This document shows positions 22,131-51,226 of a stretch of DNA of 64,000 nucleotides, one piece after another. Every line of letters starts with the position of its first letter. Position 1 is the stretch's first letter. Source of the DNA: Octopus vulgaris. Taxonomy: Eukaryota. The stretch spans positions 5,394,001 through 5,458,000 of the forward strand of contig OX597840.1 in the NCBI GenBank assembly GCA_951406725.2, read 5' to 3'. The position numbers and the translations under genes were made by a program. A model generated the notes under the pieces. That model worked only from the letters and a program-made list of their open reading frames with translations. It made no database searches and was not told where the DNA came from.

Positions 22131-22408
22131 GATTAATTATTATTTATATACATATATACATATGTATATATATGTATATATGCACATACGTGTATATACA
22201 TATATGTGTGTGATATATATTCATGTATATAGATACATGTGTGTATATATATGTATATATATATATGTGTATATGTATGTGTGCATATATGTATGTATAT
22301 ATATGTATATATATAAATAGGCGAGAATTCACAAAAAAAAAATCAAAAGACGAAGACAGGTGGTGTAGACAACAAACAGATGTATAAACGCTTGGGAAGT
22401 GAAAAAGT

Positions 22409-22444
22409 CTTTAACATTTCGAGCCTATGCTCTTCCTCAGAAAG
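22409..22444 (-). ncRNA. Minimal hammerhead in element family P1 (22320-22500)
   Basis: Minus: cttt CTGAGGA a gagc-atag-gctc GAAA tg TT aaag. Confidence 0.7.
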
Positions 22445-22794
22445 GAACACAGAAAGAAACAAGGAGAGAAAATAAAGAATGTGTTGTGGCTAGCGATGTA
22501 AATACACACACACACACACGTATATATATATATATATATATATATATATATATATATATATATATATATATATATATAAATATATATAAATATATATATA
22601 TAATATTAGGGAGTATAACTCCAAACTTACAGGGAAAAATTCAATTTAGTATTAAATCAAATTTCCCAGTATAAATATATGAAATACAAAATGTGAATTA
22701 GAGATAAAACCACTATCATGCAACTCAAACAGTGATAGACATAAACCAATACATAAATAACAAATAATATATATAATTAATATAATATATAATA

Positions 22795-22960
22795 TCATCA
22801 TCATCATCATCATCATCATCATCGTTTAACGTCCGTTCTCCATGCTAGCATGGGTTGGACGGTTCGACCGGGGATCTGGGAAGCCAGAAGGCTGCACCAG
22901 GCTCCAGTCTTATCTGGCAATGTTTCTACAGCTGGATGCCCTTCCTAACGCCAACCACTC
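22795..22960 (-). mobile_element. Family C
   Basis: (CAT)n gtttaacgtcc..ggatgcccttcctaacgccaacc. Confidence 0.8.
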
Positions 22961-23364
22961 GAATGATAAATATAATATAATAAGTATTATTATAATTATA
23001 TTATTATATTATATTTATAATTCATTTTATACTTTTTGAAAAAAAAAATATATATATTATATATTATATCAATTATATATTACGGAGATGTACTTGCATA
23101 GCAAGTGATTTGATCTGAGATCGTGTGCTGAAACGGATACAATTGCAGCGTGGAAGATGTTTATAAGCCATTTAAGAAACACACAAAAGCTGTTCGATTC
23201 ACTTCAACATTTAAGTTTAATATTATTTGTTATTTATGTTTTGGTTTATGCCTATCACTGTTTGAGTTGCATGATAGTGGTTTTATCTATAATTTATATT
23301 TTGCATATATATATATATATATATATACACACACACACACACACACATATATATATATATATAT

Positions 23365-23590
23365 GACAGACTCTCCGGTCGAAGACGACATGTGGGGATT
23401 CACCCTTAGCTGAACGACCTGCACAAATGATTTGTTTATAGTGATCAAATGTTCGTGCCGCACATTATCTCACTCTCTCCATCAAATTGATGTTGTCTGA
23501 ACAGGTGCACAGGTGTATCACCTGTCAGGTGTCGAACTGATTGCAGAGCCACGTGAGATGAAGTGTTTTGCTCAAGAATGCCACCCAGTC
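23365..23590 (-). mobile_element. SINE-like fragment
   Basis: Minus cttgagcaaaacacttcatctca, a CORE/V-like segment. Confidence 0.45.
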
Positions 23591-23781
23591 TAGTAATTAT
23601 CATTAATTTGTGATTTCAGTTCTGTGAACAACAATCTAACCACTAGTCTTTCTGCTCTCATATATATATATATATATATATATATATATATATAAACACA
23701 CGCATACACACACTCACGCATGCATACACACACATATGTATATATATATATATGTATGTATGATATATGATATATATATAT

Positions 23782-24010
23782 ATCATCATCGTCATCATCA
23801 TTGTTTAACGTCTGCTTTCCATGCCAGCATGGGTTGATGGTTCGACCAGGGTCTGGGAGGCCAGAAGGCTGCACCAGGCTCCAGTCTGATCTAGCCATGT
23901 TTCTACAGCTGGATGCCCTTCCTAACGCCAACAACTCCGAGAGTGTAGTGGGTGCTTTTTACGTGCCACCGGCACAGGGGCCGGAGGAGGCTTGCAACAG
24001 CCATGATCAG
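23782..24010 (-). mobile_element. Family C
   Basis: Same diagnostic motifs as 22795. Confidence 0.8.
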
Positions 24011-24201
24011 TTATTGTATATATATATATATATATATACACATATCATCATTATCATCATATATATCTATATATATGTATGTGTGTGTGTGTATATATAT
24101 ATATATATATATATATATATATATATATATATGTGTGTATATATATATGTATGTGTGTATATGTATGTGTGTATATATATATATATATATATATATATAT
24201 A

Positions 24202-24520
24202 ACTGGCACTCCATTGGTTATGATGCTGTATGTTCAGTTGATTCAACCAATGGAACAGCCTGATCATGAAATTAACATGCAAGCGGCTGAGTATTCCACA
24301 GATATGCATAACATACCCTTAACGTAGTTCTGAGGGAGATTCTGCACGACATAGAATGTAACAAGGCTGGCCATTTCAATTACAGACACAGCTCATTTTT
24401 GCCGGGTGAGTGAACTGGAGGAATTCAAAACAAATTGTCTTGCTCTAGGACAAATTGCACTGCCAGGAATTGAACCCTGGAACTCACAGCTGCATGACTA
24501 TGAACCAAATACTGTAATCA
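24202..24520 (-). mobile_element. SINE with a different head but the family B type 1 tail
   Basis: Minus gggttcaattcctgg..tgtcctagagcaagac, then ctacgttaagggt..gttaatttcatga.caggctgttcc. Confidence 0.65.
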
Positions 24521-24752
24521 CTAATTTTCACACACACACACACACACAATATTTAAAACAGTTTGATTTGGTTCCATGCAGCTTAAAGTTTTGCGGGCCC
24601 CTAACAGAAGCCTGAAAAAGAGAAGCTTCTGTTAGGGGCCGGCGACATTTTAAGTCACAGGGGAAGAAAAGTGTCTTAAATAATACGTGTAACTCCTACT
24701 AAATGTGTTAAATGTCCTTTCCTTTTGTTTGTCTACTTGTTCATATACATAT

Positions 24753-48091: not shown

Positions 48092-48492
48092 ACTCTCTTT
48101 TACTCTCTTTTACTATTTTCAGTCATTTGACTGTGGCCATGCTAGAGCACCACCTTTAATCGAGCAACTCGACCCCGGGACTTATTCTTTTGTAAGCCCA
48201 GTACTTATTCTATCGGTCTCTTTTGCCAATCCGCTAAGTAACGGGGACATAAACACACTAGCATCAGTTGTCAAGCAATGCTAGGGGACAAACACAGACA
48301 CATAAACACACAAACGCATATATATACATATACATATATTCGATGGGCTTCTTTCAGTTTCTGTCTACTAAATCCACTCACAAGGCTTTGGTCGGCCCGA
48401 GGCTACAGTAGAAGACACTTGCCCAAGGTGCCACGCATTGGGACTGAACCCAGAACCATGTGGTTTGTAGACATGCTACTTACCACACAGCT
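48092..48492 (-). mobile_element. SINE family A
   Basis: Reverse-complement match. Confidence 0.9.
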
Positions 48493-49019
48493 ATAAAAAA
48501 ATTAAAAGTTAGCCTTGTTTTTGATATTTTCAGTGTCATTAATCATAAAATACTTTTCTCATAACTTTTAATTTTTTGATAATAATAAATGAATATTTAT
48601 ATGTGTTGTCTTTTTTTAATAACTGTATACCTAATTTTGTATCCCCTTGCATATATGATGATATATATATATATATATATATATATATATAATAGATTGA
48701 CTAATAATACAAGAGTGGAATTGAAACAGGATGTGTGTTAATAATATTGACATAATGACTCTCCCTAGACACAACAAAATATAATAAATTGGTGTTTTAT
48801 ATACATACATATATATATATACACATATATATATATATATATATATATATATATATATATATATATATATATATATATATATATATATATATATATATAT
48901 ATATATATATATATATATATATAGGTATATCTATATATATACATATAGATAGGTGTATATAAATATATATATTTTATGTATATATATTCCTTGTTTCTCT
49001 CCTTGTTTTTTCTGTGTCC

Positions 49020-49055
49020 CTTTCTGTAGAAGAGCATAGGCTCGAAACGTAAAAG
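49020..49055 (+). ncRNA. Minimal hammerhead, family P1 (U6 variant)
   Basis: cttt CTGTAGA a gagc-atag-gctc GAAA cg TA aaag. Confidence 0.7.
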
Positions 49056-49408
49056 ACTTTTTCTATTCCTGAGCGTTATACTAATACATCTGTTTGTTTT
49101 GTACACCACCTGTCTTCGTCTTTTGTTTTTTTTTGTAAACTCTCCCTATATTTATAGATATATATATATTTATATATGTATGTATATAGGTGTATGTATA
49201 TAAATATATATGTATATAGTTATGTTATATTCTGTTAAGAACGTTATGAAGTACAGTACAAAGCTTGTCCACCTCCAGATTCCATCCTGTGCTATCCAGC
49301 ATTAGCATTATACATCCATGTTTGCATTTGGGCTTCTGTCATGTGTAAATTGATAACTGAAAAAATTGAAGTCAAGAAGAAGAAGAATGATTGAACATTT
49401 ATCTCTTA

Positions 49409-49514
49409 ATCATTACAATTGTTTCTATGCAACGTAGTTCACCAGGCATGCTGTTACTTGATTATGGAACTGCTTCCCTGCATTATGAGATCTAGTTGTG
49501 TTTCCTCAGGCGAT
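49409..49514 (-). ncRNA. Hammerhead-like motif with a long, decayed stem II
   Basis: Minus: atcgc CTGAGGA aacacaactag..(77 nt in all)..ctacgttgcata GAAA caattg TA atgat. Confidence 0.45.
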
Positions 49515-50019
49515 ATATAAATATTGTCACCATAAATTCAAATTCTTGGCTTCAAGAACATCCTCTCTGTCTATCGTGGCTTATATATATGTTCGTATGG
49601 ATGCATTCCTCCCCATCTTGGATTTGCTATGACAAATCCCTGAAGAGGATGAAGGCACTCAAGAATTGATATTTACCGAAATACATATATATGCATGTAT
49701 GTATATATATGCATACGTATGTTTATGTATGTACATTTTGGTGTATGTATATATCTGCATATATATATAAATATATATACATGTATATTTATATAATAGT
49801 ATAAGTATGTATGTATCTCCATATATATATATATATATATATATATATATATATATATATCAGTAATGGCTAATTTAATATATAAAATTCAAGTTTTGCC
49901 CATGTGTATGAGAGAAGCGAATCCGGAATGTACTTGACATACAGGTAAATGTACACATATACATACATACATACATGCATATACATGCACACACACACGC
50001 ACAAATATATATTATTTAG

Positions 50020-50660
50020 GTATAGGTGTGACTCTGTGGTAAAAAGTTTACTTCTCTGACATATAGTTCAAGGTTTCAATCCCAGTTCATGGCTGAGAAA
50101 AATCTTGTGAAAATATATTTTGTAGATGGAAACTGAAAGTAGCCAGTCATATATATATGTGTATCTGTGTGTGAATGTGTGTGTGTGTGTGTGTGTGTGT
50201 GTGTGTGCACACGCGCATACTTTACATTTGATCAAATATATCTGTGACAAGTGTGTGTTTGTGTTTGAGTTTCTCCCTCACCACTGCTTGACAACTGTAA
50301 CTTAGTGGTTCAGAAAAGGGGAGTGATAGAATAAATGCCAGGCTTTAAAAAGTATGTACTGGTGTTGATCAATTTGATAAAAACCTTTGAAGGCAGTGCC
50401 CCAGCATGGCCACTGACTACAGACTTACAGAAGTAAATGTAAAAAAGATAAAGGATTTACATATATTTATATGTGTGTGGGGTGTATCTCAAAGGGCCAG
50501 CCTTGTCACAATCAGTGTCACGCTGAATGTCTCTGAGAAGTGTTAAGGGTACACCTGTCTATGGAATGCTCAACCACTTGCATGTTAATTTCACGAGCAG
50601 CCTCTTCTGTTGAACAGAGCAACTGGGACCTTCACCATCATAACCAACAGAGGGCTCCTC
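50020..50660 (+). mobile_element. Old family A copy (50020-50450) and family B type 1 tail (50490-50660)
   Basis: Diverged matches. Confidence 0.6.
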
Positions 50661-51053
50661 TATATATATCATTTAATGAGCACAGATTTTAAATACATGC
50701 CATTCTCTCACTGGCTCAGAAACTTATTTTGTTCATCTTATGAATAACAAAACAGAAAAACACACATGCATGCATGTCCAATATTTTATATGGAGATGGT
50801 CGTTTGATACCAATTTCTGAAATACCACAGCAAATTGATTTTTATGGGCTTCTTAAATATGTTTCAGTAACCGTATCTTATAGTTGTTTTCAGTCTAACT
50901 GTATAGTAACTTTACAGACATCCTGCATATATACATTTACACACATATATATATATATATATATATATATATATATATATATATATCAGAACGCCATGTT
51001 GGATCTTTAGCCCCTACACGCAATTTTTTTCTCTCCTTGTTTTTTTCTGTGTA

Positions 51054-51091
51054 TCTTTCTGTCGAAGAGCATAGGCTCGAAACGTAAAAGA
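51054..51091 (+). ncRNA. Minimal hammerhead, family P1 (U6 variant)
   Basis: tcttt CTGTCGA a gagc-atag-gctc GAAA cg TA aaaga. Confidence 0.7.
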
Positions 51092-51226
51092 CTTGTTTTA
51101 TTTCTATTCCTGAGTGCCATACTAATACATTGTTTGTTTGTACTCCACCTGCCTTCGTCTTTTGTTTATTTTCATAAACCTACCTTCGTCTTTTGTTTAT
51201 TTTCGTAAACCTTCCCGTTATATATA

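Follow-up and report, generated by a model that had tools for sequence, protein, structure and literature searches.

A hammerhead-like motif with U at core position 6 is the family state in pseudo-LTRs of an Octopus vulgaris Penelope-like retrotransposon

Five short repeats in a 64,000-nucleotide (nt) stretch of Octopus vulgaris DNA (the window; assembly GCA_951406725.2, contig OX597840.1, forward-strand positions 5,394,001 to 5,458,000) carry a 36-nt motif resembling a minimal hammerhead ribozyme, and four of the five have U in place of A6. This raises the question of whether U6 is a sporadic mutation or the state of a family, and what such a motif could be kept for. We find that the five repeats are the pseudo-long terminal repeat (pLTR) ends of an autonomous, endonuclease-bearing (EN+) Penelope-like element (PLE), and U6 is confirmed as its family state. 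The copied RNA is uncut, or religated, and the motif may be an attenuated hammerhead kept under selection.

All five motifs are present in the window. The core letters, stems and additional A that a first-pass annotation had read there are borne out, and its coordinates are the starts of the 36-nt blocks, to within 1 nt. C3 lies at 22440 on the minus strand and at 37448, 37686, 49024 and 51059 on the plus strand, with core letters CTGAGGA (22440), CTGTGGA (37448 and 37686), CTGTAGA (49024) and CTGTCGA (51059); in this order, position 6 is A, U, U, U and U, and H17 is T, T, T, A and A. Every copy has the extra A, a GAGC/GCTC-type stem II, GAAA and a CTTT/AAAG-type stem I, and GAAA is followed by CGT in four copies and by TGT in the 22440 copy. 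A fuzzy pattern for the motif gives 5 matches in the window vs 0 in 50 mononucleotide shuffles. No Rfam hammerhead family was among the best 150 of 905 matches listed, nor among all the matches of two single copies.

The window copies are repeats of about 160-230 nt with a fixed 3′ end running into (TA)n. The minus-strand fragment at 22320..22500 (block 22409-22444) has A6 at 22437 and C15.2 changed to U; it was dropped by the tree filter and is assigned to the G7/U17 subfamily by inspection of its flanks. The plus-strand fragments at 37390..37570 (block 37444-37479; U6 at 37451; predicted cut 37475/37476) and 37615..37806 (block 37682-37717; U6 at 37689) both have G7 and U17, the former with one stem I mismatch and the latter with two stem II changes that form G-U pairs. 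Also on the plus strand are a fragment of the A7/A17 subfamily at 48987..49146 (block 49020-49055; U6 at 49027; predicted cut 49051/49052) and one of the youngest group (C7/A17) at 50987..51218 (block 51055-51090; U6 at 51062). A direct duplication of about 33 nt of the pLTR 3′ end is found at 51149-51213 (+), and likewise at the 3′ end of locus L124; its size is close to the 30-40-bp "tail" described for Penelope-like insertions in the accessible text of two papers (PMC8557442, PMC11167929).

Position 6 was tabulated across the whole genome (2.8 Gb, 227 contigs), as the first-pass annotation had proposed. There are 18,970 exact matches to the motif with a GTAG loop and 2,425 with the ATAG loop that had been read as the family form; the stem II of that reading stands, but the majority loop is GTAG, and ATAG is what CpG decay of GTAG would give. 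All told, the U6 motif family has more than 21,000 exact matches genome-wide. Only 44 of the ATAG-loop matches have A6, and in the first 100 of them, counted by eye, position 6 is U in 97, C in 3 and A in none. A pattern with every core letter free has 20,739 matches; among the 98 copies recovered in loci from the first 100, position 6 is U in 93, C in 3 and A in 2 (N7: U 37, A 23, C 20, G 18; H17: A 78, U 18, C 1, G 1). We also assembled a motif-independent set with a flank-only profile, applied to 464 kb of DNA that had not been selected (the window among it), 30 downstream-flank loci and 50 protein-found loci. It gives 87 matches, 7 without an in-register block, and the remaining 80 have U6 in 75, C in 2, A in 2 and G in 1. 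Every other block position except N7 and H17 is kept in 72-80 of these 80 copies (C3, U4, G5, G8, A9, G12, A13, A14 and A15.1-U16.1 in 76-80 each), and H17 is A in 55, U in 24 and C in 1. By each of these counts the consensus is U6, not A6, and U6 is an amplified family trait, not a sporadic change, as had been suggested. The stretch is also present in organisms B, C and D, where the table gives no other letter at position 6; we leave this out of the count because the same table lacked expected N7 letters. An expression look-up listed no RNA record as carrying the stretch.

The window's A6 copy (22440) is likely a back-mutation, because A6 copies are scattered through the U6 clades of a tree built with the core masked, at a neutral T-to-A rate. 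In a further comparison 13 A6 copies require 12 changes, and the A6 share of 1.8% is within the flank T-to-A rate of 0.8-2.1%. An ancestral remnant is unlikely on the same grounds. U6 itself is likely derived from A6, because a sister family and other minimal cores in the genome have A6. The sister family (L174, L180, L188-L190, L192, L202 and L336-L342) forms its own clade with support 100, and all 14 of its copies have A6 in a CTGAAGA core. Its stem I is GTTT/AAAC vs CTTT/AAAG in the U6 family, a compensatory pair, and stem II is kept under a GTCT/GTTT loop 2. It has the same (TA)n ends and inverted partners; no RT (reverse transcriptase) or EN match to a parent frame was found in the 14 loci, and its probable PLE status rests on pLTR likeness and architecture. 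Cores with other stem II letters gave 214 matches with A6 vs 47 with a pyrimidine at position 6, numbers that are not a census. We inspected 30 of the 47; they are mostly decayed members of the U6 family, with a few that look like sporadic mutants of other families, and independent U6 families were rejected on this basis. Another repeat (locus centres L351 and L358) carries a CTGTTGAA...GAAACGT motif that has a G in position 17 and lacks a matching stem I. In the window, an unrelated, consensus-like CTGATGA core with a 7-bp stem II and GAAAC lies at 39197-39240 (+), with no clear stem I seen.

The longer copies identify the parent element. Upstream they run across a C-rich tract and on into a frame resembling GIY-YIG, and this region used as a query gives 150 scored matches of 14,629 candidates in the genome. 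Of 50 GIY-YIG-anchored loci, two of which are one place, the motif follows on the same strand in 33, at 362-1064 nt downstream, with U6 in 31, C6 in 1 and A6 in 1; the A6 case is the query locus, which was picked for A6. Locus L123 has a 1098-codon open frame flanked by two pLTRs, both U6, and L130 has two motifs 4285 nt apart; in both loci the motif stands on either side of the frame. The frame matches Pfam RVT_1 (E 8e-8 and 1e-7). The GIY-YIG domain scores below the cut-offs (Pfam E 0.077, TIGR01453 E 0.024), with a visible NIIY..YIG motif, and the linker that joins RT to EN contains CX4CxxC (CSRPRCRTC in L124-L126). TA runs at copy ends indicate (TA)n targeting, and partial pLTR-ORF-pLTR tandems (ORF, open reading frame) occur with inverted 5′-truncated partners (L030, L042, L192). 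A PDB sequence search was empty. The motif sits upstream of the first Met, at a distance of about 750 nt, and downstream of the GIY-YIG region, by 360-1060 nt; coding constraint was rejected as the cause of its conservation because it falls outside the conserved frame.

We predict from these features that the element is of the Neptune/Nematis type as defined in the accessible text of PMC8557442, the two clades being taken together. Shared with that type are a single frame of RT and C-terminal GIY-YIG with CCHH residues, a CX2-5CxxC linker, (TA)n targeting and inverted 5′-truncated partners, whereas the Octopus element differs in its 3′ untranslated region (UTR), which is long, C-rich and variable in length. 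In L123 (about 1905-1915) a short TA run that matches the (TA)n target follows the pLTR end inside the 5′ UTR, and it may be a reverse-transcription primer. On the minus strand of L092, a 246-codon frame adjoining the element is presumably a fragment of a second, different Penelope-like RT. The upstream part of L091 holds a decayed stretch that we take to be a mariner-type transposase.

Conservation of the motif is visible between subfamilies. Clustering 284 copies on flank columns alone gives 11 subfamilies, whose divergence from their respective majority sequences ranges from 17.5% to 5%. The majority letter changes among them in 30 of 78 flank columns (40 of 95 including the ragged 3′ end) but at none of the 10 conserved core positions (Fisher p 0.014), and position 6 does not change between subfamilies under the 60% rule either. 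Between subfamilies N7 takes A, C, G and U, and H17 takes C, A and U, never G; these are the two positions that hammerheads leave free. CpG decay alone was rejected as the source of N7 variation, as A7 and G7 mark flank-defined clades. The 80 motif-independent copies give the same conservation pattern. Among inserted copies, 13 of 640 non-CpG core letters have changed vs 5 of 240 in loop 2, so the core decays neutrally after insertion and selection is visible only between source lineages. The first-pass annotation had named core decay at the pace of the flanks as a refutation; this was misplaced, since it is the inserted copies that decay neutrally and the source lineages on which selection acts.

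The 5′ ends of copies bear on whether the motif is cut. We mapped them on 95 of the first 100 copies from a search with only the downstream flank (15,491 matches in all); of these, 91 span the predicted cut site and 89 contain the whole block. The family spreads through uncut (or religated) RNA, because 91 of 95 copies cross the cut site without a pile-up there. Most copies are solo pLTRs, and 52 of the 95 start 80-110 nt upstream of the cut site, a preferred 5′ edge that we read as the probable transcription start. Such a clustering is also what a nearby transcription start would give if the block were conserved as DNA, for instance as a promoter or an endonuclease target in the pLTR, or by hitchhiking, with the RNA fold irrelevant. 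The lack of any compensatory stem change inside the U6 family fits this too. We judge it highly improbable, given that N7 and H17 are the only positions to vary and that in the sister family a stem I pair has changed in compensation and stem II is retained beneath another loop.

The explanation we favour, with slightly better than even confidence, is that the motif is an attenuated hammerhead under selection that depends on a protein or on dimer formation. Transcription of the element would begin close to the 5′ edge of the pLTR, the element's protein would nick (TA)n DNA, and on uncut RNA reverse transcription would start immediately beyond the pLTR 3′ end, leaving many solo pLTRs of about 200 nt. 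U6 would remove the contacts of A6 and let U4-G5-U6 pair with A15.1-C15.2-G16.2, which would hide the ACGU palindrome in the monomer. Cutting would then require either pairing between two pLTR copies or refolding of the motif by the element's own protein, and slow, conditional cutting would be kept by selection for a step other than insertion, such as RNA processing or circle formation. The two alternatives of the first-pass annotation, a tolerated natural core variant or a family that spreads without cleaving, do not exclude each other: 91 of 95 copies derive from RNA that crosses the cut site, and the subfamilies nevertheless conserve the motif.

Published systems offer precedents for parts of this scheme. 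In the accessible text of PMC11167929 (Frangieh et al. 2024), a hammerhead of an anole PLE cuts only with protein, reverse transcription starts internally on unprocessed RNA, and catalytic mutants still insert in vitro; Naiads spread without canonical hammerheads (PMC8557442, same limit). A natural A6C hammerhead of phage Bcep176 is reported to be slow in Mg2+ and rescued by Mn2+ (PMC3088659, PMC7151607, in the text accessible to us). The ACGU-only stem III, which the first-pass annotation had said could not fold as a monomer, is that of a known dimer-type minimal hammerhead in the available part of PMC4209133. The adjacent pair in the window had been put forward as a natural source of the dimer, a role we reject. 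Its copies (37390-37570 and 37615-37806) are identical at 153 of 176 aligned bases (87%), are split by a (TA)n-type run (37571..37614), which is the insertion target of the U6 family, and are both damaged in a stem. When the dimer fold is forced, its energy exceeds the minimum by about 25 kcal/mol, and the stem III pair probability is 0.0003. More likely dimer partners are a second RNA molecule or, within a full transcript, its other pLTR.

Folding predictions support attenuation and also feed a rival in which the motif would not cut. In the isolated block, the predicted helix of U4-G5-U6 with A15.1-C15.2-G16.2 has a mean probability of 0.76 in U6 copies (100 copies), rising to 0.98 with U7, vs 0.12 in A6 copies (14 copies) and 0.02 in C6 copies (5 copies), and it hides the ACGU palindrome. 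The rival proposes that after A6 changed to U the motif was kept as a folded RNA, bound by the element protein or organising reverse transcription, in a long hairpin of stem I, the U4-G5-U6 helix, tandem G-A pairs and stem II. Besides the helix itself, an invariant loop 2, the 91 copies that cross the cut site, the normal in vitro insertion of catalytic mutants (PMC11167929) and the Naiads that lack canonical hammerheads (PMC8557442), both as given in the accessible text, would all suit it. Yet C3, A14 and U16.1 would be unpaired in the hairpin and are constant, and H17 is never G between subfamilies, which, at three or four positions, is no more than suggestive; the helix is weak in the full pLTR context, and the hairpin would be disrupted by the C6 excess. 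We regard a kept, non-cutting fold as possible but rather unlikely.

Full tolerance of U6 would be a further alternative, in which the dimer or protein-bound ribozyme cuts about as well as with A6 and the extra A or the fixed GUAG loop compensates. The persistence of U6 through 11 subfamilies with the rest of the core fixed agrees with it. So do two single old copies (locus centres L354 and L363) with U6, C7, C17 and fully compensatory stem II changes, in L354 also in stem I, which may be the trace of an older U6 lineage; these two were selected by a pattern demanding double changes. Published A6 substitutions strongly lower activity in Mg2+ in the accessible text of PMC7151607, PMC3088659 and PMC9901934, and we consider full tolerance quite improbable. 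Within the attenuated hammerhead that we favour, U6 might itself be a selected lock that weakens catalysis, hides the dimer palindrome and fires only when the element's own protein (or Mn2+) remodels the motif, a variant that seems to us unlikely.

Several observations weigh against an attenuated hammerhead. Of the 95 mapped copies just 1 begins at the cut site, where there is no pile-up, and in the longer pLTR the probability of the predicted U6 hairpin is just 0.07. U6 is not accompanied by a compensating change at another core position, and in a deep mutational scan (PMC9901934, accessible part) single and double changes of the CUGA turn gave low activity, except for a C-G swap. Conservation cannot separate a cutting from a non-cutting fold, because the U6 hairpin also leaves N7 and H17 unpaired. 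None of the 34 block positions other than N7 and H17 changes its majority between subfamilies (60% rule; p 3e-6), but this count is partly circular because, for most of the 284 copies, the search patterns had set stem II and some of the core in advance, and the clusters are approximate. In two clusters, where A6 and C6 copies were purposely over-sampled, U6 is a mere plurality. An excess of C6 would speak for attenuation, A6C being a natural low-activity core (PMC3088659, PMC7151607): C6 is found in 18 of 100 old-subfamily matches and 11 of 100 C17-group matches (both by eye) vs a flank T-to-C rate of 5%. Against this, the C6 copies do not group as a clade, 15 of them requiring 15 changes, and a C share of 18% is also reached in 13 of 154 flank T columns. 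The C6 excess would come either from amplified C6 sources or from a mutable site.

The minimal hammerheads of metazoan PLEs (Cervera and De la Pena 2014, PMC4209133) are the closest known relatives, and the following comparisons are limited to the accessible text of the papers cited. Shared are a motif in both pLTRs, mostly truncated solo copies, an extra nucleotide between A9 and 10.1, G10.1-C11.1, a 4-5 bp helix I, palindromic 15.2/16.2 and no loop 3. All 56 representatives in its Fig. S3 have A6, which the descriptor required, whereas the Octopus family has U6; the single core variant described there is U3-A8. With U6 in 75 of 80 copies the family departs from the CUGANGA consensus, and this lowers its claim to be a consensus hammerhead, not its claim to derive from one and perhaps to work like one. 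Bcep176 A6C (PMC3088659, PMC7151607) shares a natural pyrimidine at position 6, and C6 also occurs in old Octopus subfamilies, but it is a single phage motif with C, not U, and with measured cleavage. The anole Poseidon element PAc (PMC11167929) shares a pLTR hammerhead, an AT-rich target and a short optional tail, and its internal start of reverse transcription on uncut RNA is like that proposed for the Octopus element. It belongs to the Poseidon clade, and its motif overlaps the start codon, unlike the distant Octopus motif; U6 is not reported in the accessible text. Non-LTR retrozymes (bioRxiv 10.64898/2026.07.22.740005) share short hammerhead units from PLE pLTRs, but they are head-to-tail tandem arrays, whereas the Octopus copies are dispersed solos ending in (TA)n: a second motif was found inside the 3-kb locus in 5 of 70 loci, three of them inverted. 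A family-wide U6 core, "A6U" and "CUGUUGA" were not found in the literature searched, mostly without subscription papers. Minimal Penelope hammerheads and natural A6C are thus known already, and a family-wide U6 is apparently new.

The window also contains at least ten copies of a repeat of about 420 bp with inverted ends, which we take to be MITE-like (miniature inverted-repeat transposable element). They lie at about 280-690, 9450-9900, 20860-21270, 24740-25170, 40400-40830, 45350-45790, 48090-48490, 57260-57680, 59880-60280 and 62916-63370. A long hairpin at 59661-59886 does not reach the Rfam threshold for MIR8562.

Why PLEs keep hammerheads is an open question, as these cut poorly in vitro and insertion of one reconstituted element needs no cut. 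Here, in a highly successful autonomous lineage, a core base that is normally invariant was replaced, after which the rest of the motif was kept through 11 subfamilies; built-in controls are available in the A6 sister family and in revertant copies that naturally have A6 or C6. If the U6 motif cuts, it would add a tolerated core letter that CUGANGA descriptors miss (more than 21,000 motifs in this genome); if it does not, a hammerhead fold would be kept for a non-catalytic job. The U6 family would be a natural test of whether Penelope elements need to cut at all.

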